From IMG/VR virus record IMGVR_UViG_3300022468_000627, positions 27,892 to 91,891 of that record: a stretch of 64,000 bases of DNA. The stretch is one strand, 5' to 3'. Under the pieces are notes generated by a model that worked only from the letters and a program-made list of their open reading frames with translations, was not told the origin of the DNA and ran no database searches. The translations under genes were made by a program, and so were the position numbers. This document shows positions 4,210-59,103 of this stretch, in pieces (positions within the stretch are counted from its first letter, which is position 1; each line of letters begins with the position of its first letter). This stretch comes from a virus.

Positions 4210-4764
4210 TCAGGTCTTGATCAGGTAGTTCAACACCAGCGTGGGCTGGGTGTTGTTGTGCGCGCCGCCGCCGCCCTGGCTGGCCGTGGTGGGCGTCGCG
4301 CCGGCCGCCGAGCCCGAGCTGCGCAAGTCGTTGGAGCCCGACCCGGCCGAGGCCGTGGCGCCGCTGATGGCGTGGCTGTGCGCGGGCGTCTGGGCTAGGG
4401 TCAGCGTGTGGGTTTCCGCACCGCCGTTGGCGCCCAGCGTGGCCCCATCCACGCCGCTGCCCGCCGTGGTCAGCCGCGACGCAGCCGAGCCGCCCATGTT
4501 GTCCTTGCCGCCAGGCACGCGGCCGCGCAGGTCGGGCAGGTTGAAGGTGGTCGAGCCGTCGCCGGTGCCATAGGCCGTGCTGATGGCCGCGAACAGCGCC
4601 GCGTAGGTCGTGCGGCTCACCGCTTGGCCATAGCACAGCAGCCAGCCGGTGGGTGCAGTGGAGCCCGCATAGGGCAGAACGACGCCGGCCGGGGCGCCAC
4701 CGAAAGACGGGTTGATGGTGCCGGCGGCGCCGAACAGCGCCCCCAGCTTACTTGCCAGGCTCAT
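4210..4764 (-). CDS. Tail-collar-domain fibre protein
   Basis: VVLPYAGSTAPTGWLLCYGQAVSRTTYAALFAAISTAYGTGDGSTTFNLPDLRGRVP is the classic phage tail-collar signature. ATG 4764 overlaps the upstream stop (ATGA). The track ORF is 5'-extended. Confidence 0.8.
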   Translation of the reverse strand: MSLASKLGALFGAAGTINPSFGGAPAGVVLPYAGSTAPTGWLLCYGQAVSRTTYAALFAAISTAYGTGDGSTTFNLPDLRGRVPGGKDNMGGSAASRLTTAGSGVDGATLGANGGAETHTLTLAQTPAHSHAISGATASAGSGSNDLRSSGSAAGATPTTASQGGGGAHNNTQPTLVLNYLIKT

Positions 4765-6291: not shown

Positions 6292-6300
6292 GATGCTCCC

Positions 6301-7140
6301 TTACTCGTACCACCAGACGAGGCAGTAACCAGATCCGCCAGCGCCGCCGGCAGACGTGCCATTGGTGGTGCTCGACGCGCCTCCACCGCCGCCGCCGCCT
6401 TTGTTGGCGGCGCCTGCCATGCCGGCGGTGCTGCTGAAGCCGCTTGCGCCACCGCCAGCTGATGCGGGGACGCTGTACGTCGAGCCCTGTCCAGTTCCGC
6501 CTGCGCCGCCGCCGCAAAATCCGTCGATGCCAATGCCGGGGATGGACATTCGCGCCGTTTGATTGAATGCGTTGCCACCAGCGCCGCCACCGCCGCCGCC
6601 TACATAGGGATTGGCGATAGTATTGGTAGCGTCGGTGTAGAAGTTCGGAATTGCACCGGCGCCTCCGAGGGAGCCCGCCCCGCCGAGCTGGTTGAAGCCG
6701 GAAAATCCGCTCCCGCCTCCGCAAGCACCATTTCCACCCGTGGTCGCCATACCTCCGCCACCGTAGCCACCGCCAGGGGATGTCAGGAGCGAACCGAAAG
6801 TCGATGCGCCACCGGCAGTTCCGTTTGCACCGGCCGTAGTGCTATTGAATGCGCCTCCGCTTCCACCTGCGCCAATGGTCACTGCCACCGGCCCGGTCAC
6901 AGTGACTGGCTGCACCACAGGGAAACTGCCGCCCCCACCGCCGCCAGGACCGCCGTAGGTGCCAGTGCTTCCACCGCCACCACCACCGCAGCCGCCGCCG
7001 ACCAGCCGGACCCACACCTGCCCACCAGCCTTCAACAGCCCATCGCTCGGCACGAACGTGCCCGAGGCCAGGAACTCCTGGTAGCGCAGCTTGCCGCCGC
7101 CGCTACCGCCCACGTTGGGCACAAAAGGATTGTTGGCCAT
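6301..7140 (-). CDS. Glycine-rich fibre-like protein
   Basis: 279 aa with long GGxGG tracts and a C-terminal YCLVWWYE. ATG 7140 overlaps the upstream TAA (TAATG). Confidence 0.6.
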   Translation of the reverse strand: MANNPFVPNVGGSGGGKLRYQEFLASGTFVPSDGLLKAGGQVWVRLVGGGCGGGGGGSTGTYGGPGGGGGGSFPVVQPVTVTGPVAVTIGAGGSGGAFNSTTAGANGTAGGASTFGSLLTSPGGGYGGGGMATTGGNGACGGGSGFSGFNQLGGAGSLGGAGAIPNFYTDATNTIANPYVGGGGGGAGGNAFNQTARMSIPGIGIDGFCGGGAGGTGQGSTYSVPASAGGGASGFSSTAGMAGAANKGGGGGGGASSTTNGTSAGGAGGSGYCLVWWYE

Positions 7141-8740: not shown

Positions 8741-9970
8741 TCACAGAGTAAGCAGTCGCAGATCCCGGACACGCGGGCGCACGGCCACGCCGCCCGTGGT
8801 CAGGTGCAGCTTGCAGCGCACGCGGGCCTCGGTGACGGCGGTCTTCTGGAACTGGTACTCGTAGAGGCCCAGATCGCCGTCGATGAGCTTGGGCGTGCCG
8901 ATCTGGGTCATGGTCAGGTCGCTGTCGCCAACATCCACGCCAGACACCGTGGGCACTACATTGGCGCCGCTCGGGATGATGGCCGAGAAAATCACCTTGG
9001 CCGTGCAGCCGGTCGCGTCGGCGTCGATGGCGGCCGAAATGTAGTCGTCGCTGGCGTGCACGACGCCCTGCACGATTTGGGTGCCAGGGTGCAGCGTGGC
9101 CGAGTTGTTGGCGTTGGAGCGCAGCCGGGCCTTGACGCCGACCGTGCCGGTGGTGGCGGCGCTGAACGCGATGCGCTGGTTGTCGCCGGCCTTCACCACG
9201 GTGCCGTCAGGCAGCGTGATCTCCAGCTCGCCGGTGGCGGCGCTGTGCGGCGACTCGATCATGGCGAGGGTCAGCAGCTCGGTCGCGCCGGTGATGCTGA
9301 CGGTGCCAAGGTCGATCAGGCGCTCGGACTCGGTGTACTGGCGGGCCACGAGGCGGAACGCCAGGTCGCGGTCCTGGTACGCGGTCCAGGTGCTGGCGTT
9401 GGACGAGGACAGCAGCACGCCCACGGTGTAGGGCTGGCTGGTGATCCACTGCTGGGCAGCGGCGTCGAACTTGCCCAGCTCGGCCACGGCCAGCTCGCTC
9501 ACGGCGTCGTTGCAGAGCACCACAATGGCGTATTCGGTGCCGGCCTCCAGGCGGGCTGGCGACGAGAACGCGAAGTTGGTCCACTGGTCGGCGGTGATGC
9601 TGCTGGCGGCCCGGCGGCTGTCGGCCACGATGGTCTGGGTCGGGTAGCCCACCTGGGTCTCGCGGATCTGCACCGACACGGCCGTGGAGCCCACGGCGGT
9701 GAACCACAGATCGACGCCCTCCAGCTGGATGGCCTCGGTGAGCGTGAAGGTCTGCGCGATAGGGTCCACGCTCTGCTGCCAGCGCGTGGTGGTGATCTGT
9801 TGCACCAGGGTGCGGATGTCTTCAATCAGCGTGCCCTGGCCAATGAAACTGGCCGTGGCCTGGCTGCCGCCCTGGCCGGTGAACGACACCTGCTTGGTGC
9901 CGGCCGGCACGTTGGCCGGGATCGTAAATTTCCCGAGAACGACACCGTTCGAGTCAGCGGTAACGGTCAT
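8741..9970 (-). CDS. Baseplate/fibre-associated structural protein
   Basis: 409-aa ORF between the DUF4815-like protein and the fibre. Placed by position only. Confidence 0.6.
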   Translation of the reverse strand: MTVTADSNGVVLGKFTIPANVPAGTKQVSFTGQGGSQATASFIGQGTLIEDIRTLVQQITTTRWQQSVDPIAQTFTLTEAIQLEGVDLWFTAVGSTAVSVQIRETQVGYPTQTIVADSRRAASSITADQWTNFAFSSPARLEAGTEYAIVVLCNDAVSELAVAELGKFDAAAQQWITSQPYTVGVLLSSSNASTWTAYQDRDLAFRLVARQYTESERLIDLGTVSITGATELLTLAMIESPHSAATGELEITLPDGTVVKAGDNQRIAFSAATTGTVGVKARLRSNANNSATLHPGTQIVQGVVHASDDYISAAIDADATGCTAKVIFSAIIPSGANVVPTVSGVDVGDSDLTMTQIGTPKLIDGDLGLYEYQFQKTAVTEARVRCKLHLTTGGVAVRPRVRDLRLLTL

Positions 9971-9984
9971 TGGTGCTCCAAAAA

Positions 9985-11913
9985 TCAGGGCGCGGTCGGC
10001 GTCACGGCCAGGCCGTCAAACGTCACCGAAGTCAGGTTTTCGCCAGGGCCGAAGCCTTCGAGGCGGAAATGCACCTCGATCTGGCGCAGGTACTCCAGCG
10101 TCTTGGTGAGCTGCACCGACTGGATGGACTGGGTCGTGTTCTCGACCGACATGTTCCCCCAGCCCTCGGTGAAGCGCAGCACGATGGGGCTGGTCCAGAT
10201 GACGTTGGTGTCGGTCCAGCGGTCGATGGCGGGCGTCAGCGTGGCCTTGGCGGGCAGCGGCGAAAACGCCAGGTAGGCGTTGATCTTCATGCTGCCCGTG
10301 CGGCGCTCCTGAGCCAGCGCCACGCGCGACGTGAAAGCGCAGGTCTCCGGGCTGGTTACGTCGGCGGTCGGCGTCTTGACCGTGGCGTCGATGCCCATGG
10401 TCAGCTCGCCGTGCGAGATGGCGGCGTACTGGGTCAGGCCCTGGTCGCGTAGGCCATCGGACAGGAACGGGTCGACAAACAGCCCCTTCTTGGCGGCGGC
10501 GTCGCGCTGGGATGCGTCGGCTTTCAGCTTCTGCTCGCTCACCATCAGGATGACGGTGTTCAGGCGGTTGTTGATCGCCTCGATGTCCTGCATGGGCACG
10601 ACGCGCACGCCGTCGTTGATGACGTAGCTGGAGGCCGTCCAGGTCTGCACCACCTGGGCCAGCGGCAGCAGGTTGTTGGGCACGCTGGGTCGCACCGGGT
10701 TGTAGTCGGTGCTGGTGCCCTCGACCCACACGAATTCGCCGTCCTCGTTCAGGCACAGGCGGTCGATGCGCGGCAGCTTGGTGTAGTAGCTGGTCTGGAT
10801 CAGGGTGCCCACCACGGCGCCGGTCACGATGAACCCGTTGTCGTCAACCGCAGTCGGAGTGACCGACATGATGTGATCGTAGGTGACGTCGTAGGACTGG
10901 CCGGGCGCCGGCTCGGCGCCGGTCAGCGACCAGTCCACCTTGCCGGCGGTCAGCTGGTAGTCGGTGCCCTGAACGTAGGTGGTCGCGCCCTGCACCACGG
11001 ACACGATTGCGACCACGGACGTGTCAGGCAGCGGATCCTGGGCGCCCGTGGTGGTGCCGTGGTTTAGCGTGGCCGTGGTGCGCTTGGTGATGCGCACCTG
11101 AGTGATGTTGGCGATCGGCGGCCGCGCCACATCCACACGGAAAGCGCCGGCAGAGCCCGAGTTTTTGGGCTCGCTGTCGATGAACCGGGTCACCGGCACG
11201 GCGTTGCGCGCCAGCCGGCGGCTGGTGGTCACGTCGATGCCGAACCCGTTCACGCGGGCACGGCCGTTGCCGACCGAGAACACCTGGTAGCCGTCCACGC
11301 GGTCAGCCAGGCGGGTGACGCCCAGGCCGCTCACAACGTAGCTGCCGCCGGCGCTGTCGCGGTCATAGCGCGCCAGGGCTTGGGTCACGCCGTCCAACTG
11401 GGGCGGGGCCTCCTTGGCGTTCACGATGCCGTCGGTGACGGTGTAGACCGGGAAGAACTCGCCGACCTGGTCGTCGCCACTCCAGGCCCACACGGGCACG
11501 ACTTTGTAGCGCTCGGCGCCCTGGCGGTTGTAGGCGCGCGACTCGACGGCAGGGTCGAGCAGCGTCGGGTCTTCCACCGAGGTGACGATGGTCGTCTGCA
11601 GGCGCAGGCCGACCGCGATGGTGCCGACGATCGGCACGGTGATGGTGGCCGGGGCCACGCCGCGCACGTTGCCGTTCAGGTAGACGGCGCCGGCCTCGCA
11701 GGTGGTCACGCCGGTGTCGGGGTCCACCACAATGCCGGCATCGCGGATGACACCGCCGTCCTTGAGCATGGCGTCGGCCACACCCTTGAGGGCGTAGGCG
11801 GCGCGCGATTGCATCTCGTCGAGCTCAGCAGACTGCAGCGGCCGGTTCGGAATGAACCGGTGCGACTCATAGTTCTTGGCCGGGTCGAACCGGTTGTAGG
11901 AATTGGTGGTCAT
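9985..11913 (-). CDS. Baseplate structural protein (DUF4815-like)
   Basis: 642 aa. N-terminus NRFDPAKNYESHRFIPNRPLQSAELDEMQS resembles the DUF4815 opening block (from memory). Confidence 0.65.
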   Translation of the reverse strand: MTTNSYNRFDPAKNYESHRFIPNRPLQSAELDEMQSRAAYALKGVADAMLKDGGVIRDAGIVVDPDTGVTTCEAGAVYLNGNVRGVAPATITVPIVGTIAVGLRLQTTIVTSVEDPTLLDPAVESRAYNRQGAERYKVVPVWAWSGDDQVGEFFPVYTVTDGIVNAKEAPPQLDGVTQALARYDRDSAGGSYVVSGLGVTRLADRVDGYQVFSVGNGRARVNGFGIDVTTSRRLARNAVPVTRFIDSEPKNSGSAGAFRVDVARPPIANITQVRITKRTTATLNHGTTTGAQDPLPDTSVVAIVSVVQGATTYVQGTDYQLTAGKVDWSLTGAEPAPGQSYDVTYDHIMSVTPTAVDDNGFIVTGAVVGTLIQTSYYTKLPRIDRLCLNEDGEFVWVEGTSTDYNPVRPSVPNNLLPLAQVVQTWTASSYVINDGVRVVPMQDIEAINNRLNTVILMVSEQKLKADASQRDAAAKKGLFVDPFLSDGLRDQGLTQYAAISHGELTMGIDATVKTPTADVTSPETCAFTSRVALAQERRTGSMKINAYLAFSPLPAKATLTPAIDRWTDTNVIWTSPIVLRFTEGWGNMSVENTTQSIQSVQLTKTLEYLRQIEVHFRLEGFGPGENLTSVTFDGLAVTPTAP

Positions 11914-27299: not shown

Positions 27300-28408
27300 A
27301 TCACCCCGATGCGAATGCCATGGATGGCCGACATCAGCCCGCCGTTCGAGCCTTTGCCGCCGTGCAGGATGCGGTCAATCGTGTCGGAGTGCTTCTCCAT
27401 GTCGTTGCTGATCGACTGGCTCAGGCCGTCCGCGCTGATCGAGCCGGACGCCGGCAGGAAAGCGTCCTCGATGATCTTGAGCGCGGCCTTCTTGTAGACC
27501 ACGTCCAGCAGCTCGGGGTAGTTCGCCGGCACGTCCTTGAGGCCCGCCACGTAGGTGATTTGGATCGCCAACGGGATGGTGCGCCCCTGGCCGATGGCCT
27601 GCATGACGAAGGCGTTGAGCGGCGCCGCGAACGAGGTTGCGGACGGCACAAACTGGATCTGGCCGTACTTGCGGTCGGCGCGAATCCAGTCCAGCGGCAG
27701 GTCATAGTGCGCCGTGGGGCCGCCCGGGTAGGCGAAGCGCACGCGGCTGACCGACTGCAGCGGCTTGTTGCGGAGCTTGATCATGCCCCACTTGTCGTTG
27801 AACTGAAAATCGCTGGGCTGGTAGTCGTAGCCCGGGTCCACGCCCCAAGGCTGGCCGTTGAGCGCGTCGATTTCGGCCTGGCTGGGCTCATCGGGGAAGA
27901 ACGCCGTGGGCGCCAGCGGCACGCGCAGCTCGTGCGCTATCTCGGCCTCGGCGGCGCGCAGCTTGTCCCAAAGGAAGTCGTCGCCCACGTCCACGGTCGG
28001 CATGGCGCCGGCGGCCGCCAGCATGAGGCGGTCGCGGCGCAGCTTGGCCACGGCCAGCATGCGGTTCGGGAACAGCGCCGAGCCGGCTGCATTGCTGTCG
28101 TCGACCAGGTAGAGGCGGATGGTGCGCTCGTCGCGCCGGCCCTGGGTGGAGACGACGGTGTTCGTCAGCACGTACCAGGTCCAGGCCTGGGCGTTTTGCG
28201 CCTGCACCCACACCGACGCGCTGGCGCCGCTCACGCCGGGGGTGTTCAGGGTGAGCGCGGCGTCAGCCGACCAGGTGCTGGTGTTGATCGTGTCGCCGGG
28301 GGCGAGCGCCAACCAATCGGACCAGTCGATGCGGTAGTCGAGGTAGGCGTCCTTGTCCTGCTGCGCCCACAGCCCCGTGCTGTCCTGGTTGAGTGTTGCC
28401 ATGGTCAA
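27296..28408 (-). CDS. Hypothetical head-tail connector-region protein
   Basis: 370-aa ORF (TTG 28408 overlapping the upstream TGA, or ATG 28402). N-terminal YLDYRIDWSDWLALAPGDTINTSTW block. Confidence 0.65.
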   Translation of the reverse strand: MTMATLNQDSTGLWAQQDKDAYLDYRIDWSDWLALAPGDTINTSTWSADAALTLNTPGVSGASASVWVQAQNAQAWTWYVLTNTVVSTQGRRDERTIRLYLVDDSNAAGSALFPNRMLAVAKLRRDRLMLAAAGAMPTVDVGDDFLWDKLRAAEAEIAHELRVPLAPTAFFPDEPSQAEIDALNGQPWGVDPGYDYQPSDFQFNDKWGMIKLRNKPLQSVSRVRFAYPGGPTAHYDLPLDWIRADRKYGQIQFVPSATSFAAPLNAFVMQAIGQGRTIPLAIQITYVAGLKDVPANYPELLDVVYKKAALKIIEDAFLPASGSISADGLSQSISNDMEKHSDTIDRILHGGKGSNGGLMSAIHGIRIGVM

Positions 28409-48558: not shown

Positions 48559-49712
48559 TCGCGGTCTTTCTCGCCCTGGGCGAGCTGGGCGCGGATCCAG
48601 TCGCCGAACTCGGCGCTGTCACCTGGCCGGTCGGTGACGGTGGGCACCCAACGCCCCCGGCAATGCGGGTGCACCAGCCCGGCAGGCACGGTCCACATTT
48701 CGTCCGCCTCGCGCTCGACGAAGGCGTTGCCCACGCGCTTGCGCGGGCTGGCGCTGCGCCCGATGTTGTTCTTCCCCGCCCAAATTTGAGTGTCGGGGTC
48801 CTTGTGCACCATGCCCGGGTCCACCACGGTGACGACCATGCCGTCGATCTTGCGGCAGAACGCGCAGGCGTTCCGGTACTGCTCGACGCGCTTCACCTTG
48901 GTGCCGGCCGGCAGGCTGGAGATGTAGCCCTGGGTCTGGGCTTCGCCCGCTTCGGTGACGGCGATGCGCCGCCAATCGCGGTTGAGCGTGCCGAAGGCGT
49001 CGAGCAGCTTGGTCTCCAGCGACGAGCCAGGGCCCTGCACGCCCAGCGCGCGCTGGGTGACGTGCTCGGCGATGACGCCACGCATGGCGTGCCGCGCGCT
49101 CTCGGCCAGGTGACGCACGTTCTCGGCGCAGCGCTGGGCGGCAAAGTCCATCATCGCACGCTGGGCCTGGGTGGCGCCGAATGCGGCCGCGACCGCCTCG
49201 GTGGTGCCAGGCATCGCCATGATCATGGCGTCGGCCTGCTTGGCGTCAACCTCGCTCATGGCGGCCTGCACGCGACCCATGATGCTCGACCGCGCCGACA
49301 GCCATTCGGCCTCGGTGCGCATGTCCTCGGGCGGCAGGTAGCGCTGCGCCAGGTAGTCCACCGCCAGCATGTGGTCGTCGAGCGTCCACTCGGCCGGCGG
49401 CAGGTGCTCCAGGTACAGCTTGACCAGCGACTTCTCGGCCTCGTTCCAGCGCTCCATGACGCCAGCCGGTCGGGCGATGCGCTCACCGGCCGTGTGCCGG
49501 TGGCCTTCTGTCCACGCCAGCAGCTCAGTGCGGAACGCATCGAGGCGCGCCAGGCCGCGCTGGGTGAACAGCTCGACCAGGCGGGCGATCAGCGGGCTGT
49601 CCATCGGCGCCCAGATACCGTCGTCGTGGTCGTGCCCGGCCTTGCACAGGTACTCCAGCGCGGCGTTCGTGCGCGGCTCGTCGAGGTCGATGATGTCGAT
49701 GAATAGGCCCAT
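48555..49712 (-). CDS. MuF / SPP1 gp7-like head morphogenesis protein
   Basis: 385 aa. RRIAVTEAGEAQTQGY and C-terminal AGLVHPHCRGRWVP match the MuF family R..TE and HPNCRC-type blocks. Confidence 0.8.
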   Translation of the reverse strand: MGLFIDIIDLDEPRTNAALEYLCKAGHDHDDGIWAPMDSPLIARLVELFTQRGLARLDAFRTELLAWTEGHRHTAGERIARPAGVMERWNEAEKSLVKLYLEHLPPAEWTLDDHMLAVDYLAQRYLPPEDMRTEAEWLSARSSIMGRVQAAMSEVDAKQADAMIMAMPGTTEAVAAAFGATQAQRAMMDFAAQRCAENVRHLAESARHAMRGVIAEHVTQRALGVQGPGSSLETKLLDAFGTLNRDWRRIAVTEAGEAQTQGYISSLPAGTKVKRVEQYRNACAFCRKIDGMVVTVVDPGMVHKDPDTQIWAGKNNIGRSASPRKRVGNAFVEREADEMWTVPAGLVHPHCRGRWVPTVTDRPGDSAEFGDWIRAQLAQGEKDRE

Positions 49713-49718
49713 GCTCGC

Positions 49719-49734
49719 ATGGTGCCATCACGAC
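49719..49734 (-). promoter_or_regulatory. Conserved late-promoter-like motif (copy j)
   Basis: Minus strand GTCGTGAT GG CACCAT, then GCGAGC, then ATG 49712. Directly after terminator 49735-49763. Confidence 0.5.
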
Positions 49735-49763
49735 AAAAAGCCGGGGCGGTCTCCCACCCCGGC
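49735..49763 (-). terminator. Intrinsic terminator
   Basis: Minus strand GCCGGGG-(10-nt loop)-CCCCGGC followed by UUUUU. Confidence 0.65.
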
Positions 49764-49928
49764 CTTCGCCGCCTGACGCGCGGTATCGGTCTGGCCCCAG
49801 GCGAGCGGTGCCCGAAGACACCACCAGGAGACGCCGCCCACCCATGAAACGGCACGCCCGTACCAGACTGCGGCCCTTACATCCCGAGGATCCGCTGCGG
49901 TCGACACCCAACCATGCCCTTGCGGGCG
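49735..49928 (-). ncRNA. Predicted small RNA of about 195 nt (promoter motif k to terminator 49735-49763)
   Basis: Discrete unit bounded by motif copy k and an intrinsic terminator, with no credible ORF. Long-range pairing GCCGCCCGC / GUGGGCGGC. Confidence 0.4.
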
Positions 49929-49934
49929 GCCCCC

Positions 49935-49950
49935 AGTGTGGCGTCACGAC
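49935..49950 (-). promoter_or_regulatory. Conserved late-promoter-like motif (copy k), not followed by an ORF
   Basis: Minus strand GTCGTGAC GC CACACT directly after terminator 49951-49976. Confidence 0.45.
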
Positions 49951-49976
49951 AAAAAGAAACCCGCACGAGGCGGGTT
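49951..49976 (-). terminator. Intrinsic terminator
   Basis: Minus strand AACCCGC-CUCGU-GCGGGUU followed by UCUUUUU. Confidence 0.65.
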
Positions 49977-50740
49977 GAAAAGCGGCCGAAGCCACTCAGG
50001 GAGGAGGTTGATGGTGCAGCGCTCGAAGCCCAACGCAATGCGCCAGTGTCGATCCCGACGCCGCCAAAACAGGCCCAGGTTCAATCGACTTACCCCGAGG
50101 CCAACGGCTCTTGCACACCATCACATCAGCGGGCCGGGCTTGATACCGGCTCCACGCGGGGTAACAACGGGCCGCAGGCCGGACCAACCGCCCACTTTCC
50201 CCCGCCCGCTCACTCCTGGCCCTGGCCGCTGGTCGGCTGTACCTCTTGTGCTGGCCTAATGTTCAGGCGTTTCCTTCAGCGCCGCCGCTGATGTGATGGT
50301 CCTCGTCTTTCCGAGGCGTCTCCCGTGGGTGGGTCGACCTGTGGTTTGCATTTATCGGGGCAGACCCACACAAACTGCTACCCGTGCTCGTTGATAGCGG
50401 CCAGGAACCCCCGACCCAAACCATCAAGCGTGATGACTGGCTGGCGCCGACGTGCTTCCCGGGCAACCTAGTGGTCGGAGCTGAAACCGTCTCTCTGTGT
50501 GCCAATCATCACACTTGATGGCCCTGGTTTACAAAGCCAGGCATCAAGGCCGGTTGCCCATCCGGCGCACCCTGAATTCGCGCAAGGCGTATAGGGGCGG
50601 CTCCCATCGCTGGGTTCTGCTGATTTCCCCGCAGTCTCCTACGGTAAGGGGCTCAACTGGCCCAGCAGACGTGTTCCCGGTTTGATTCCCAGCCCGGCCT
50701 GCAAGCGTCGTCGGAATGGTTGAATTCTAACCCAAAACGA
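49951..50740 (-). ncRNA. Candidate large structured non-coding RNA (about 790 nt) downstream of the alarmone hydrolase gene
   Basis: No ORF with coding-type GC3, and visibly lower GC. A 16-bp helix (50117-50132 / 50285-50300). A 20-bp helix (50421-50440 / 50502-50521) whose two non-Watson-Crick positions are G.U on the minus strand but C.A on the plus strand. Ends at an intrinsic terminator. Confidence 0.4.
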
Positions 50741-51337
50741 TCAGAGCTTGTCCAGCCCCGTGAGGTACGTTGTAGAAAACAGACGTTCCAGCACCGGATG
50801 CTTGGCGCCCATGGACTGCACCACTTGGCGCGCGTCGTCGAAATACTTGCGCTTGCGGGCTGCGTCCCAATCCGGCGGCGACGCCACCAGGTCGCGCAGG
50901 TTCGCCGTCTTGTCGGCCATCTTCACAGCGGCCGCGCGCGGGCTCATCTTCGCCGCGTGGGCGGCCTGCCATGCGGCCTTGCCGCCAGGACCGAAGTCCG
51001 CCGGGTTGGTCAGCTCGGCCACCAGATCGGCGACGTCGTGCCCAAACTCCGCGACGAGGTTCGCGTGCGTGGCACCCGTGTCCTCCATCGTGTCATGCAG
51101 CAGGGCGGCCTGCAGGGTGACGTGATCGGTGATGCCGGCCTCGTCGTGCAGGATGCGGGCCACGGCGCGCGGGTGCTCGATGTAGGGGACCAGCGGGGCG
51201 CCGGGCTTGCCCTTGCGGTACTGGCCGGCGTGGGCCTTGTCGGCGTAGCGGTCGGCATTGCGGACGTGGGGCGAGACGTAGACGCCATCGCGGCGGGTGT
51301 GCCCCCGAACCTGGATCGACTTGAACAGGAGGATCAA
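50741..51337 (-). CDS. Small alarmone hydrolase (RelA/SpoT-type HD domain) with a 28-aa N-terminal shared motif
   Basis: AHAGQYRKG..PYIEHPRAVARIL and AALLHDTMEDT are the RSH hydrolase His and HD..ED blocks. The only usable start is TTG 51337 (TTGA overlap with the upstream stop, AGGGGG 6 nt upstream). The track's ATG 51511 extension is Arg-rich off-frame-type sequence. Confidence 0.8.
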   Translation of the reverse strand: MILLFKSIQVRGHTRRDGVYVSPHVRNADRYADKAHAGQYRKGKPGAPLVPYIEHPRAVARILHDEAGITDHVTLQAALLHDTMEDTGATHANLVAEFGHDVADLVAELTNPADFGPGGKAAWQAAHAAKMSPRAAAVKMADKTANLRDLVASPPDWDAARKRKYFDDARQVVQSMGAKHPVLERLFSTTYLTGLDKL

Positions 51338-51561
51338 GCGGCCCCCTGCTCGGCCGGTTGCTGGGCGGCGGGCTGCTGCTCGCCCTGAGGCCGCTGGCCC
51401 ATCAGGCGCTGCGCCTCGGTTTCGTCGATCTCGTCGCCCCAGTCGATGTCCTTCGGCACGGCGCCCTGGTACGACACGAACTCGCTGCCGTTCCAGACTT
51501 CCTTGGGCCACGCCCGGGCTGGGCCCCGAAACAGCGCTCCCTCGTTCTCAATGAAAATCAT
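51334..51561 (-). CDS. Small acidic protein (75 aa), candidate antitoxin or adaptor
   Basis: ATG 51561 shares its A with the upstream TGA. Strong GC3. Asp/Glu-rich (DIDWGDEIDETEAQ). Confidence 0.55.
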   Translation of the reverse strand: MIFIENEGALFRGPARAWPKEVWNGSEFVSYQGAVPKDIDWGDEIDETEAQRLMGQRPQGEQQPAAQQPAEQGAA

Positions 51562-53003
51562 CACGCAACCCTCCGAAACAACAATGCCATTGTAGCCGCT
51601 TGATCGGATTTGATCAAAGTCTTGTCCTGGCTGCCGTTGCTTTTCGACCACGCATCGTCGTAGATCGCCTTCTGGCGCTTCAAGGCCTCGTAGTACGACC
51701 GGTGGTCATCGTCCGACCAGCTGTCGCCAGGCTCGGGCTCGCCGTACTTGCCTTGCAGCGACCGCGTGATTTCGTAGTCCTTGTGGCCCTTCTCCTTCGC
51801 CAGGGTCATCGCCTTGGTGTGGATCTGCAGCTCGGCCACCATGCCGTTGGGCAGCTTCACGAACGCCATGAGGTCGCGGTAGCCCTCGGCGGTCGGCTTC
51901 GCAAACCGGTTCTTGGGCTTCTGGGCGATCTCCAGGCCGGCGGCTTTCATGTGCTCCAGCGCCTGCTTGACGTGGCCCATGGTGGGCACGCTGATCGTGC
52001 CGCGCACGATGTCGCGCAGCTGCGACCAGTCGCCCTTGTAGTCGGCGTCGACCTTCTCCTTGGCTCGCTTCTCGCCCTTGAGTGGCGCAATGAACAGGAA
52101 GCCGTCGCCGTTCTCCCACTGCTCGGGGGTGATCTGCTCGGGCTTCATCCCGGTCTTGAGGCCCATGGCCTGCTGCACCTTACCCAGCATGCCCCGGAAC
52201 TGCTCCAGGCCCTCGGTGCCCTTCTGCACCAGCTCGTCCCAGCTCTGGGCGGGCTGGTTGACCTTGTCCGGCAGCGCCTCGATCGTGGCCTTGTCGAACA
52301 GCGACGCGGCATCGACCGGCGCCGGCTGGGCCTGCTCCTGGGCGCCCTGCTCGGGCTGGGCGTCATGCGGGCTGGCGTCGGGTGCGCCGTCGCCCTGCCA
52401 GTGGTGCGTGATCTTGTCGTGGGGCACGCGGTGCTCGCCGCCCTTGGGGTCGCGCACTGTGACGCCGTGCTGGCCGGCAGACAGAACCTGGCCGTGGCCG
52501 CGATGCTCGCCGTTCTCGTAGCCGATGTGCTGGCCTGCCTGGGCCGGCGGGCCGCCGATGTCGGTGCTCACCCAGCGCGTGGTCTGCACGCCGTTCTTGT
52601 CGGTGACCTTCTTCTGCTGCAGGCCAGGGCCGGGCGCCGGGCCCGCCTTGAGAAACAACACCGGGCGCCGCCCGAATGCTTTTGCCACCATGGGGTCGTC
52701 CTTGGATTCGTTGGGGGTGGCCACGAAGCGACGACGGCCGCTGGCGTCCTGCACCAGCATGCCGTCCTCGCCGTGGTCGATGACGTCGTAGCGCTGCGGG
52801 ATCCGCTGCTTGTGGCCCAGCACCTTGTCCCAGCGGACTTTCTGGTGCTGGCCGTCGATCTTGACGGTGACGCCGTGGCGGCCGTGCGCGGTCACCTCGC
52901 CGGTGCACGGCTGGCCGCCATGGTGCACGTACAGGTGGTCACCCACCTCGACATCGCCGCGCGGCTCGGGCTCTTTCTGGGGCTTCGGGGGCTTGAAGGT
53001 CAT
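51561..53003 (-). CDS. RelA/SpoT-like nucleotidyltransferase (small alarmone synthetase / toxSAS-like) with N-terminal duplicated His-rich SH3-like modules
   Basis: 480 aa from ATG 53003 (ATGA overlap with the portal stop). The C-terminal half has PLKGEKRAKEKV, LRDIVRGTISV, AEGYRDLMAFV, VAELQIHTKAM, GHKDYE in the order of the RelA_SpoT synthetase blocks. Confidence 0.8.
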   Translation of the reverse strand: MTFKPPKPQKEPEPRGDVEVGDHLYVHHGGQPCTGEVTAHGRHGVTVKIDGQHQKVRWDKVLGHKQRIPQRYDVIDHGEDGMLVQDASGRRRFVATPNESKDDPMVAKAFGRRPVLFLKAGPAPGPGLQQKKVTDKNGVQTTRWVSTDIGGPPAQAGQHIGYENGEHRGHGQVLSAGQHGVTVRDPKGGEHRVPHDKITHHWQGDGAPDASPHDAQPEQGAQEQAQPAPVDAASLFDKATIEALPDKVNQPAQSWDELVQKGTEGLEQFRGMLGKVQQAMGLKTGMKPEQITPEQWENGDGFLFIAPLKGEKRAKEKVDADYKGDWSQLRDIVRGTISVPTMGHVKQALEHMKAAGLEIAQKPKNRFAKPTAEGYRDLMAFVKLPNGMVAELQIHTKAMTLAKEKGHKDYEITRSLQGKYGEPEPGDSWSDDDHRSYYEALKRQKAIYDDAWSKSNGSQDKTLIKSDQAATMALLFRRVA

Positions 53004-54748
53004 GGCTCGAATTTGAAGACGGGCAGGCCGAATGCCTTGGCCATGTCGGCCGGCTCGGACTCGGCGGGCCGGTCGGGCTGCTGGGCGCCAGCGTCGGGCC
53101 GCCCGAAGTCCTGACCGTCCTCGCCGCCGAAGTCCTGGCCGTCGCCGCCCTGCTCGTCCGGCCCGGGACCGCCGCTGGGCTGCTGGCCGGGCTGGCCGAA
53201 GTCTTCTTGCTGGGGCATGGCCTCCTGCTGCCAGACGCCGACCAGCGACGGGTTCAGCGGCGCGTCGCCCCACTTGCCATCGGCCTTTTCGAGCCCATCC
53301 TCGGCACGCATCTCGTTGACGGTCAGCGTCAGCTTCTTGCGCTCGAAAACCTGCTTCTCGTCTTCCTCGTCGAGGCCGGTCCACTGGAACTCGTACTTGT
53401 CGGAGAACTCGCCAATCACGTACTGGCTCATCGTGTCTTCGAGGTAGGCCAGCAGCGGGCGCAGGCCCTTGTCCTTGGAGAATGCCAGCTTCTCCTCGGT
53501 GTCGTTGCCGCTGAGCGAGCTGGTGCCCGACGTGAAGCTCTCGAAGTTGATTTCGTCAGGTGCGATGCCGTAGATCGCGCAAATGATCGACCCCAGGAAG
53601 GTCATCCATTTGCTGAACATAATTTCGCTGGCCTGCTCGCCGAAGCTCTCGAATTTGGCCGCCGACTCCTGGTCTTTCGACACCATCACCGGCAGCGTCC
53701 AGGCATTGTTGATGCCCTTGACCATGCCGTTCCAGTACCGCTTGAACGCCGAAATGTCCTCGTCGGCGTAGTTGCCGAACAGGTTCAGCACGCCACGCGG
53801 CATGGCGTTGCTGTCGAAGAACTTGGTGTTGTAGGTGAAGGCGTTCAGGAACCCCGTCACCACGCGGATCAGCAGCTCGGTCTCAGCCAGGCCGTAGCCG
53901 CCGGCGATCACGTCGGTGCGCGGGTTGCGCGGCACGTAGATCAGGTCGTCGTAGCTGTAGGCCGTGCGGATCTGGCCCTGCACCACCTGCAGCGCGAAAA
54001 TCTCGTCCTCGCCGCGGTAGCCCTCCTCCGAGCACAGCCGGATGGTGGCGCCGTCCACGGCGTAGACGCCATCCAGGCCCAGCGACTTGTCGCGCTTCCA
54101 CTCGGTCTCGATCGCCATGCTGTCCATGGTCAGGCTGTCGCGCACCAGCTTCTTCATCAGGTTCGGGAAGCTGTCGCGCTTGAGGCGCATGCGCTGGCGC
54201 GGCCGGGTCTCCCAGCCCGAGTTGAGCACGAACGACTCCAGCAGCTTCATGGTCTGCTGCTCGTTCTCGTCCACGTTCTCGGCCTGCTCCTTGCTGGCGA
54301 TCTTGAAGCCCAGGCCCTTGCCGCCCTTCTGCGGCCGGCAGAACCGCTCGACCTGGCGCTGTCGGGTCATGATGACGGCGTTCAGGATGGGGGTCTGCTC
54401 GACCATGGCGCGCATGGCGTCGAACGAGAACTGCCCGGGGCGCTCGAACCAGTCGCCGTTGACGTTGATCTGCAGGTCGTCGATCCACACCGACTGCATG
54501 CCGCGCTCGCCGGCTTTCTTCTCGCGCCCGCCTGGGAACGGGATGATGTTGCCGCGCTGGGCCTTGGCGAATGCCTGGTCCTGCAGGTCCTGGTTGATGT
54601 AGTCGATGATCGGCTGGATGTTCGACGCCGGGATCAGGTCGGACAAAGCGCGCGGCATCGCGGATTTTTGCAGTTCCGCCATGGCCTCCTGCCGCTCGTC
54701 GGCGGGGGCGCGCGGGTCAGCGAGTACAGAGCGGGCAGCGTCGGTCAT
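53000..54748 (-). CDS. Portal protein
   Basis: 582-aa ORF at the head of the head-morphogenesis operon, with the size and acidic C-terminus typical of portals. Motif l upstream. Confidence 0.8.
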   Translation of the reverse strand: MTDAARSVLADPRAPADERQEAMAELQKSAMPRALSDLIPASNIQPIIDYINQDLQDQAFAKAQRGNIIPFPGGREKKAGERGMQSVWIDDLQINVNGDWFERPGQFSFDAMRAMVEQTPILNAVIMTRQRQVERFCRPQKGGKGLGFKIASKEQAENVDENEQQTMKLLESFVLNSGWETRPRQRMRLKRDSFPNLMKKLVRDSLTMDSMAIETEWKRDKSLGLDGVYAVDGATIRLCSEEGYRGEDEIFALQVVQGQIRTAYSYDDLIYVPRNPRTDVIAGGYGLAETELLIRVVTGFLNAFTYNTKFFDSNAMPRGVLNLFGNYADEDISAFKRYWNGMVKGINNAWTLPVMVSKDQESAAKFESFGEQASEIMFSKWMTFLGSIICAIYGIAPDEINFESFTSGTSSLSGNDTEEKLAFSKDKGLRPLLAYLEDTMSQYVIGEFSDKYEFQWTGLDEEDEKQVFERKKLTLTVNEMRAEDGLEKADGKWGDAPLNPSLVGVWQQEAMPQQEDFGQPGQQPSGGPGPDEQGGDGQDFGGEDGQDFGRPDAGAQQPDRPAESEPADMAKAFGLPVFKFEP

Positions 54749-58556: not shown

Positions 58557-58680
58557 CCCGCCCCACCTAGAACTTGAGCGCAATCCTTCCATGCGCTGGC
58601 GGAATCCGTCCTACCATGGGATGGACTCCAGATTGCCAAGCTGCAATGAGGCTCGAAGCAAAACGAAGCGGCTGGCAGGC

Positions 58681-59043
58681 ATGCCCCATCTCCTCACCAA
58701 AAAACGCCTAAGTCGAATCATCGAATTCATCGAGGCCAACCTTGGAAATGGTTTCGATCTAAACGATCTGTCCAACGCCGCTGCGCTCAGCCGCTTCCAT
58801 CTGTGCCGATCGTTCAAGTGCACTACTGGCATGACGCTTTCGCAGTACGTCATGAGCCGGAAGATCGAGGCCGCCAAAACCATGCTGGCCGACGAGGAGG
58901 CGTGCCTGGTGATGATCGCTGGCACCTGCGGATTTGCCAGCCAGAGCCACATGTGCACAGCCTTCAAGAAGGCCACGGGCATGACGCCGTCGGCCTACCG
59001 CGCCCAGCTCAAAACAGACCCCGTATCTGTTTTGAGCGCCTGA
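58681..59043 (+). CDS. Stand-alone AraC-family HTH domain protein (MarA/SoxS/Rob-size)
   Basis: 120 aa from ATG 58681. LSNAAALSRFHLCRSFKCTTGMTLSQYVMSRKIEAAKTML and IAGTCGFASQSHMCTAFKKATGMTPSAYR are the two AraC HTH units. Low GC (29 of the first 60 nt). Confidence 0.8.
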   Translation: MPHLLTKKRLSRIIEFIEANLGNGFDLNDLSNAAALSRFHLCRSFKCTTGMTLSQYVMSRKIEAAKTMLADEEACLVMIAGTCGFASQSHMCTAFKKATGMTPSAYRAQLKTDPVSVLSA

Positions 59044-59103
59044 ATTCCACAGGCCAGGCCTGCGTTTCCACGCAATCCACGCCAGCTCGGGCGCGCATCG
59101 GGC

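Follow-up and report, generated by a model that had tools for sequence, protein, structure and literature searches.

A predicted modular RNA gene in a prophage, from a new family of phages and prophages of Comamonadaceae-type Betaproteobacteria

What is encoded in the long stretch without a gene call that lies between an HD_4 phosphohydrolase gene and a gp030-like gene of a high-GC prophage? We examined this question in a 64,000-nucleotide (nt) stretch of DNA, positions 27,892 to 91,891 of the IMG/VR virus record IMGVR_UViG_3300022468_000627, referred to here as the window. The analysis points to a genuine, conserved and modular non-coding RNA (ncRNA) gene on the minus strand, which on its sequence represents a new, uncatalogued family. 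The home of this family is transfer RNA (tRNA) islands and accessory ('moron') slots in phages and prophages of Comamonadaceae-type Betaproteobacteria. Related loci are given below by their L numbers.

Analysis of the gap revealed a perfect 16-bp inverted repeat, in agreement with a preliminary description of the same DNA that had proposed a long-range helix at this place. When the dinucleotides of the gap were shuffled 200 times, the longest perfect repeat per shuffle ranged over 8-13 bp; because none exceeded 13 bp, the repeat is not explained by chance. The GCCGG-N8-CCGGC hairpin, a competing CUUGAUG...CAUCAAG hairpin (50514-50548), an intrinsic terminator on the minus strand and a TAGAAT hexamer were also present as described, together with a second long helix in the form of a 21-nt, 90%-complementary repeat (50421-50441 / 50501-50521). 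No tandem direct repeats were found in the gap. The minus-strand RNA folded to -350 kcal/mol (z = -2.7), compared with -319 kcal/mol (z = -1.2) for the plus strand. The strand had previously been argued from two positions of the second helix, which form G.U wobbles in a minus-strand RNA but C.A mismatches in a plus-strand one; this holds for the helix in the window but is weak across the family. A plus-strand orientation was first suggested by the palindromic arms and was dropped after the interiors and downstream tails of relatives had been aligned, and it is these interiors and downstream sequences that set the sense strand as the minus strand of the window. The proposal of a large, structured, minus-strand ncRNA was thus borne out by the better minus-strand fold, covariation among homologues, a conserved promoter box and terminator, and co-oriented tRNA genes.

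An exact 16-mer scan of IMG/VR identified 56 stretches, 18 of which had the two arms as an inverted pair separated by 35-166 nt. A second scan was performed with a 19-mer that joins the 3' strand of hairpin P3 to the 3' arm of the 16-bp helix (P1). This revealed three real copies among one-genome-per-species bacterial genomes, all in Comamonadaceae (Pseudorhodoferax, Hydrogenophaga and Variovorax), and approximately 25 further copies in metagenomes. Paired P1 arms were found in approximately 45 distinct loci (18 viral contigs, 3 bacterial genomes and approximately 25 metagenome contigs), and the same hairpins flank P1 in each of them. The order from 5' to 3' is a P0 hairpin adjoining the helix; the P1 5' arm ACCAUCACAUCAGCGG; the P2 hairpin GCGUG-GAAGGA-CACGC; a variable insert; the P3 hairpin GCCGG-UAUCAAGC-CCGGC, which adjoins the P1 3' arm; the nearly invariant 3' arm itself, CCGCUGAUGUGAUGGU; and then often a P4 hairpin, a variable stretch, a P5 hairpin and (C)CACCAUCAAC. 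Of the 46 distinct sequences listed, 30 have this last box behind the P1 3' arm when up to 2 mismatches are allowed. A covariance model (R1) built for the family scored sense copies at 64-149 bits (E <= 1e-13), with unit 2 of the window at 111.8 bits.

Covariation was computed on an alignment of 22 members fitted to the model (A4), in which 88% of cells were paired. Double changes were seen at 11 pairs, compared with 6.7 in shuffles, and the covariation score was 0.169 compared with 0.092 ± 0.009 in shuffles (reached by 0 of 500) and at most 0.048 in slid controls. On four of five measures the alignment exceeded 500/500 shuffles and on the fifth 499/500, and it lay above all slid controls. A hairpin was identified at the P0 position in 22/22 members; all five P0 pairs were changed on both sides, as were three pairs of P2. 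RNAalifold applied to a MAFFT alignment detected P1 only, because the hairpins are one column off between members, and for this reason the sequences were realigned to the model.

Units with the same layout and a different P1 were found in L061 (three more), L052, L015, L063 (two), L040, L045, L003 and L004. When 13 unit helices were anchored at their base and compared, positions 1-6 of P1 stayed CCAUCA/UGAUGG, with a small number of compensatory exceptions (for example, CCUUCA/UGAAGG and CCAACA/UGUUGG), and positions 7-15 displayed up to four Watson-Crick pair types. The pair ACCAUCACAUCAGCGG/CCGCUGAUGUGAUGGU differs from AUCAUCAUCGAAGCGG/CCGCUUCGAUGAUGGU by four consecutive compensated pairs. 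Both long helices of the window thus recur in homologues with compensatory changes, and because they covary we take them to be real RNA helices. Phages of 48-67% GC share the 16-bp P1 with its box unchanged, which argues for selection on the module itself. We define the P1-type family by a P0 hairpin adjoining a perfect helix of at least 15 bp with the base (R)CCAUCA/UGAUGG(U), a CCAUCAAC tail behind this helix, and co-orientation with neighbouring tRNA genes; the window falls within this definition. The perfect helices of the P1-type units span 16-22 bp and surround a multi-branch insert. The number of units varies between relatives, in which they form semi-independent modules in series.

Two further features of the units were observed. 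At P1 position 10 (columns 38/276 of A4), the U of the 5' arm has recurrently changed to C while the A facing it is unchanged, giving a C.A mismatch; this was seen in 5/22 members (including L040, L052, L063 and L093) and likewise in L143. Conservation is much stronger in the 3' arm than in the 5' arm, which hints at a constraint beyond pairing for the 3' arm. Separately, the P4 loop GGCUGA is complementary to the P5 loop AGAUCAGCA over 5-6 nt in L021, L048, L052, L063, L027, L158 and L180, with a compensatory loop variant in L021 (GUCUGA/AGAUCAGAA) and a G.U variant in L048; judged from the loop sequences, P4 and P5 may form a kissing-loop contact. The copy in the window lacks this loop pair.

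The window holds two P1-type units, at 50548-50390 and 50316-50008 (Table 1). Directly 3' of the stop codon of the upstream gene, a TTAGAAT box was also identified in L003, L004 and L061, and TTATAGT in L002. The segment that we call module 0 is conserved at 78-86% in at least 10 viral contigs, and its stem covaries (GCAGAC/GUCUGC, GCAUGC/GCAUGC and GCAUAC/GUAUGC). The arrangement of P0 and CUUGAUG in unit 1 recurs in L003, L063 and L061. The unit 1 helix has a homologue in L061 (CCUUCAGGUUUGAUGAUUGC / GCAGUCAUCAAGCCUGAAG) with three compensatory pairs, in which the G.U pairs are kept on the sense strand, and more homologues in L063 (two copies), L003, L004 and L040; the tail motifs CUGGGGGUUCCCGG and GCCAUCAACC are common to L003 and L004. 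L003 represents a minimal form, in which the same promoter box and terminator delimit an RNA of approximately 300 nt with one unit. A possible second copy in the window, a match to GCACCATCAAC at 4711-4721, was rejected as a chance match inside a protein-coding gene.

Table 1. Coordinates of the RNA locus (5' to 3' on the minus strand), of the adjoining unit B and of neighbouring genes in the window
Feature	Position	Strand	Remark
-10-like box TAGAAT	50724-50729	minus	candidate own promoter of the RNA
Weak -35-like TGGACA	50749-50754	minus	19-nt spacer to TAGAAT
Module 0	50654-50717	minus	AUUCCGAC-N7, then hairpin GCAGGC...CUGGGAAUCAAACCGGG...GUCUGC
Module 0 stem	50702-50697 / 50670-50665	minus	
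CUUGAUG before unit 1 P0	50548-50542	minus	alternative pairing with the following CAUCAAG possible
Unit 1 P0 hairpin CCUGG-CUUUGUAAA-CCAGG	50541-50523	minus	direct reading and minimum free energy (MFE) fold
Unit 1 long P1-type helix, 5' arm GCCAUCAAGUGUGAUGAUUGGC	50522-50501	minus	
Unit 1 long P1-type helix, 3' arm GCCAGUCAUCACGCUUGAUGG	50441-50421	minus	2 G.U pairs
Unit 1 tail UUUGGGUCGGGGGUUCCUGGCCGCUAUCAAC	50390-50420	minus	CYAUCAAC box at end
Unit 2 P0 hairpin CCUCG-GAAAGA-CGAGG	50301-50316	minus	adjoins P1 5' arm
Unit 2 ('type a')	50117-50300	minus	P1 enclosing P2, variable insert and P3
Unit 2 P1, 16 bp	50300-50285 / 50132-50117	minus	
Unit 2 P2 hairpin	50283-50266	minus	loop with GGAAGGA-like sequence
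Unit 2 P3, T-arm-like GCCGG-UAUCAAGC-CCGGC	50150-50133	minus	
Unit 2 tail box CACCAUCAAC	50008-50017	minus	
CU-rich anti-Shine-Dalgarno-like CCUCCUCCC	49999-50007	minus	predicted unpaired (MFE fold)
Small hairpin GUGGC-UUCG-GCCGC	49995-49982	minus	then U-rich linker
Intrinsic terminator of the RNA	49976-49951	minus	terminator scan
Unit B, second conserved non-coding segment	49737-49950	minus	between the two terminators
Unit B start, GTCGTGAC...CACACT late-promoter-like motif	49950-49934	minus	
Unit B own terminator	49766-49737	minus	
Tyrosine integrase (Arm-DNA-bind_3 and Phage_integrase domains)	223-1494	minus	left end of window
Portal	53000-54748	minus	
gp034-like protein, weak RelA_SpoT domain	51561-53384	minus	
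Small gp033-like gene	51397-51561	minus	
HD_4 phosphohydrolase	50741 to ~51334	minus	
Gap	49713-50740		1028 nt; RNA locus on minus strand
gp030-like protein, 385 aa	48555-49712	minus	

The extent and composition of the gap were examined with gene calls guided by the GC content of third codon positions (GC3). The gap had been described as an open reading frame (ORF)-free region of approximately 790 nt, as the only large gap and as lower in GC. It is free of genes and is the largest stretch without a gene call; its size is, however, 1028 nt, since a second terminator-ended segment (49950-49737) belongs to it, and it is not the only one, since the GC3-guided call leaves 6292-7139 and 58557-59103 as well. 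The difference in GC content has the expected direction but is mild (0.57-0.66 compared with approximately 0.68-0.73 in the flanks). Within 6292-7139 lies an ORF of 279 aa whose GC3 (0.68) is atypically low and which may have been acquired recently; 58557-59103 comprises 547 nt.

These analyses bear on the possibility that the gap is a decayed protein gene or a DNA element, such as a recombination site, a miniature inverted-repeat transposable element or an origin, instead of an RNA gene. Long inverted repeats can be DNA sites, and the syntenic slot of the Bordetella phage vB_BbrM_PHB04 holds a gene for a 230-aa NinI-like Ser/Thr phosphatase. However, the gap contained no trace of a phosphatase (best tblastn E = 6.7), although the flanking proteins match at 52-60% identity. 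ORFs within the gap had a GC3 of 0.67-0.68, compared with 0.8-0.95 for real genes, and gave no Pfam or PHROG match; a blastn search of the gap DNA in 'distant' mode gave no match among 50,697 phage records. The helices carry compensatory changes and conserved loops and display no codon pattern. The arms lie 35-166 nt apart around a variable interior, their orientation is fixed relative to tRNA genes, promoter box and terminators, and multiple identical copies of the element were absent from the window. We therefore regard both a DNA element and a decayed pseudogene, which the preliminary description had raised, as highly improbable.

To place the RNA among known families, the whole window was scanned with Rfam 15 (cmscan), which gave 0 matches at gathering score and agreed with the earlier impression that no known family could be recognized. 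When 49500-51000 was scanned at E <= 10, no match reached even half the gathering score of its family, and all sub-threshold matches lay over the two terminators except one to H19_2 (14.7 bits). Scans of 13 related loci revealed tRNAs only, and five further loci gave nothing relevant at E <= 1. GOLLD, ROOL, OLE, raiA, HEARO, YrlA, tmRNA, RNase P and 6S were rejected in the absence of an Rfam model match. A hammerhead, a k-turn and a C/D box, considered for the CUGAUG/UGAUG sequences, were rejected by inspection only, as their core consensus is missing and the helix is fully Watson-Crick.

GOLLD and ROOL are large RNAs of prophages or phages that are often found beside tRNA genes. The RNA described here is likewise large, phage- or prophage-borne and tRNA-associated; it has no known protein partner, and tertiary loop-loop contacts are plausible. 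Unlike GOLLD and ROOL, it has no Rfam match, belongs to phages with Comamonadaceae hosts and is modular and variable in length where they have one conserved fold. An ornate RNA of the GOLLD/ROOL kind that self-assembles as a multimer through recurring complementary boxes would fit the size, the prophage location and the tRNA association of the family, the CAUCA/UGAUG boxes repeated throughout, and the complementarity of the P4 (GGCUGA) and P5 (AGAUCAGCA) loops with its one compensatory (L021) and one G.U variant (L048). No GOLLD or ROOL model matched the window or the 13 related loci, however, the architecture has no fixed fold, and the window does not carry the P4/P5 pair. We consider such an RNA decidedly unlikely; the single ornate fold that had been suggested by comparison with GOLLD and ROOL gives way to modules in series whose number varies between relatives.

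The species 1 and 2 RNAs of T4 are stable RNAs of a phage tRNA cluster without an assigned function. Like them, the members of our family are structured, lie among co-oriented tRNA genes and are presumably matured by the tRNA-processing machinery. Unlike them, they consist of P0 and a long P1 with the CCAUCA/UGAUGG box, occur in arrays and can stand alone without a tRNA, and no sequence or model relationship to the T4 RNAs was found. A third comparison is with the YrlA Y RNAs, in which a closing stem encloses T-arm-like and D-arm-like hairpins and which also occur in phages (PMC4201824). The family shares with YrlA a closing stem of conserved sequence, formed from the 5' and 3' ends around T-arm-like and D-arm-like hairpins. 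The order is D-like then T-like, as in tRNA, whereas YrlA has T, AS, D, and the perfect helix of the stem has no bulged Ro-binding site. No domain of Ro60 (TROVE), on which YrlA depends, was detected among the 56 window proteins scanned, and there was no Rfam match to YrlA.

The relationship to tRNA genes was examined across the family. Adjacent tRNAs were always co-oriented with the element (L015, L034, L061, L062, L063, L126, L127, L179, L187, L192 and L193). The P1 3' arm runs straight into the 5' end of a tRNA in L062, L126/L187 and L150, a tRNA follows the tail in L063 and L127, and the 3' CCA of a tRNA directly precedes module 0 in L061, L118, L119 and L122. In L002, L003 and L004, the same kind of RNA occupies the slot that has the HD hydrolase on one side and the gp030-like gene on the other, with or without a tRNA; tRNAs of the syntenic slot comprise a tRNA-Glu in L002 and a tRNA-Pro and a tRNA-Met in L015. 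L061 contains a 2.1-kb non-coding array (9340-11454) with a TAGAAT box, a tRNA-Met, module 0 and at least four P1-type units, whose helix sequences differ; a second tRNA in it is odd, called as Cys with the anticodon ACA. This array is the richest example of the family. T-arm-like sequences were recognized at the P3 position in L040 (GCAGGUUUGAGUCCUGC) and L193 (GCAGGUUUCGAGUCCUGC), and L040 also has a D-arm-like start (UAGCUCAAUG). ARAGORN identified no tRNA or tmRNA gene in the window. From these arrangements we infer that the modules descended from, or co-evolved with, tRNA operons, and the window appears to have lost its tRNAs and kept the modules.

The same arrangements are the basis of the main rival explanation, according to which the modules are leftover spacers or processing scaffolds of tRNA operons, whose sole role would be to aid folding and maturation of phage tRNAs in polycistronic transcripts or to stabilize them, and the window is a tRNA-deleted relic without a function of its own. 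Units that adjoin tRNAs directly (L062, L063, L126/L187, L150 and L127), the position of module 0 directly after tRNA CCA ends, the absence of a tRNA from the window and the highly variable unit content of relatives would all be expected of such scaffolds. This explanation is hard to reconcile with the copies in the window and L003, which run from promoter to terminator without a tRNA and keep the promoter box, the perfect helices and the terminator module, and with the invariance of P1 and its box across phages of 48-67% GC. On balance, we judge scaffolding unlikely, while giving it more weight than any other rival.

The genes that flank the approximately 45 loci are heterogeneous and include HTH/CI/Cro-type regulators and NrdR-like, Tad2-like, tail and MuF proteins. 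When 155 flanking ORFs were compared with one another by all-against-all BLAST, no protein family occurred in more than 3/18 loci, and a Pfam summary was mixed. This result argues against a role of the RNA as antitoxin to, or decoy for, the toxSAS-like MuF-RelA/SpoT protein encoded next to it, with mimicry of tRNA 3' ends as one form; the preliminary description had raised such a role because of the neighbouring gene. In the window, the RNA does adjoin the RelA_SpoT-domain protein and the HD_4 hydrolase, and hairpin-ACCA arrangements occur at P0/P1 and P5/tail. Most family members, however, lack such neighbours: the L015 unit lies next to a gp030-like gene, and tblastn did not find RelA/SpoT or the hydrolase there. 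Conversely, PHB04 has the toxin and hydrolase genes, but its slot is occupied by a phosphatase gene. The P1 ACCA lies within the molecule, engaged in base pairs, and is not a free 3' end. With neither a conserved neighbour nor tandem direct repeats, the RNA also does not resemble a type III toxin-antitoxin or toxSAS antitoxin RNA, and we hold the decoy explanation to be very improbable.

The 3' end of the RNA provided a separate line of evidence. It consists of CCAUCAACC, a CU-rich stretch with CUCCCUG, a small hairpin, GCUUUU and the terminator, and this module is conserved in L049, L027, L036 and L003, with CUCCCUG and the GCUUUU after the hairpin invariant. CCUCCUCCC exactly matches the 'cuckoo' motif, an anti-Shine-Dalgarno motif (PMC4615179). 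For CU-rich small RNAs (sRNAs) of Burkholderia, pairing with ribosome-binding sites has been predicted, and growth is attenuated when one of them is overexpressed (PMC5688073). The sequence CUCCUCCCUG is identical to the anti-hemB consensus (RF02837), and the AG that follows agrees as well, though Infernal places a gap before it; the match to anti-hemB reached 24.1 bits (E = 5e-4) over 131 nt, compared with a gathering score of 49.5. The Betaproteobacteria toxic sRNA (18 compared with 50 bits) and CcsR1 (9.6 compared with 65) also remained below gathering. With the CU-rich anti-Shine-Dalgarno sRNAs, namely cuckoo/CcsR, anti-hemB (ncS04) and the 'toxic' double-hairpin RNA (PMC4615179, PMC5688073), the window shares the exact CCUCCUCCC, a hairpin, U-rich stretch and intrinsic terminator behind the motif, and Betaproteobacteria as hosts. 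CCUCCUCCC is unpaired, as in these RNAs, but their two to four adjacent hairpins with the motif in the loops were not found, and the likeness is limited to the last ~70 nt of a 770-nt RNA. The 3' module represents the only concrete mechanistic lead, which concerns a subset of the family.

Taken together, we lean towards the view that the locus is an independently transcribed, modular, structured ncRNA gene of approximately 770 nt, running on the minus strand from ~50717 to 49951, which would act as follows. The primary transcript would be cut into stable pieces by host RNases of tRNA and rRNA processing: RNase III would cleave the long perfect helices, and RNase P or RNase E would cut at the edges of units. 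The 3'-terminal piece, comprising the unpaired CCUCCUCCC, the hairpin, the U-rich linker and the terminator, would act in trans by pairing with ribosome-binding sites, like the CU-rich sRNAs of Burkholderiales, and the invariant box at the helix base may allow the P1 units to bind proteins as scaffolds or decoys. Our preference for this gene and its mechanism, taken as a whole, is only slight.

Several observations weigh against it. The promoter, ends and processing of the RNA are read from sequence features, and a consensus promoter scan made no call at the TAGAAT box. About half of the RNA (50153-50265, 50320-50500 and 50545-50655) has no detectable homologue. Counted over the family, 27 G.U and 21 A.C cells leave little polarity. 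The covariation comes from an alignment of related sequences fitted to the model, and the type a P1 sequences were gathered with exact-match seeds, which biases them to conservation. The anti-Shine-Dalgarno module was present in only five of the loci examined and scores below Rfam thresholds, and CCUCCUCCC lies in a linker, whereas the cuckoo and anti-hemB RNAs carry it in a hairpin loop. Finally, the units score with neither the Rfam tRNA model RF00005 nor ARAGORN, even at E <= 1, and their tRNA likeness is anecdotal.

A more far-reaching and doubtful reading is that the P1 units belong to a new class of tRNA-derived phage RNA device for host takeover or anti-defence; we give low credence to it, with its three steps taken jointly. 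The CCAUCA/UGAUGG box and P0 would together be recognized by a dedicated factor that binds or cuts RNA, with the scaffolds titrating a host factor that recognizes tRNA or double-stranded RNA; the released CCUCCUCCC 3' sRNA would damp Shine-Dalgarno-dependent translation; and approximately 10 leaderless mRNAs without a Shine-Dalgarno sequence, made from GTCGTGAC-NN-nAGAAT-N6-ATG promoters, would escape this damping.

Few structured RNAs of phages have been characterized, and the large GOLLD and ROOL RNAs are still without a known function. The locus adds a well-supported, uncatalogued family with approximately 45 members, clear covariation and a link to tRNA islands, whose unusual feature is a long perfect helix with an invariant basal box. 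The prophage context and the type a units in the genomes, cultured or assembled, of Pseudorhodoferax, Hydrogenophaga and Variovorax, together with the window copy's own promoter box and terminator, offer a tractable entry point. If the 3' anti-Shine-Dalgarno module is active, the RNA would be a phage 'moron' that reprograms host translation.

Downstream of the RNA terminator lies unit B, which may be a separate transcript of approximately 190 nt or a leader. It is conserved in L002, L003 and L004, all of which share the strongly conserved block GACCGUCUGCGGUUCAUUCGGGAUAUAAAGGCCGCAG; it contains no consistent ORF and has no Rfam match. The same TTTTTGTCGTGA motif follows each of the two terminators of the gap.

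A motif of the form (G)TCGTGAC-NN-nAGAAT was observed at a fixed distance of 22-25 nt ahead of the start codon of approximately 10 genes, mostly late or structural genes on the minus strand, and often right after a terminator. Sites on the minus strand are 54770, 49734, 40770, 35639, 25854, 16523, 4199 and ~61934, and those on the plus strand are ~25860 and ~2188; further sites listed are 49950, 31897, 28448 and 12440. The -10-like hexamer ends 6-7 nt upstream of the ATG. The genes with this motif lack any Shine-Dalgarno sequence, whereas 21 of the 56 other gene calls, about one in three, have one. The arrangement suggests a class of phage late promoters that would yield leaderless mRNAs.

The window as a whole represents a prophage in which contractile-tail, baseplate and terminase genes were inventoried; the integrase gene at its left end indicates that the phage is integrated. 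Its head-proximal module is syntenic with PHB04. This phage, the closest cultured relative, was obtained as a free myovirus, unlike the integrated phage of the window. The portal gene is followed by a gene for a protein of 607 aa, whose C-terminal part carries a RelA_SpoT-like domain that scores slightly under the Pfam cut-off (26 bits), next to which lie a 55-aa ORF and the HD_4 hydrolase. This layout (50741-53384, minus strand; the observation also cites L001 8344-9036) is reminiscent of a MuF-type polymorphic toxin with its immunity gene.

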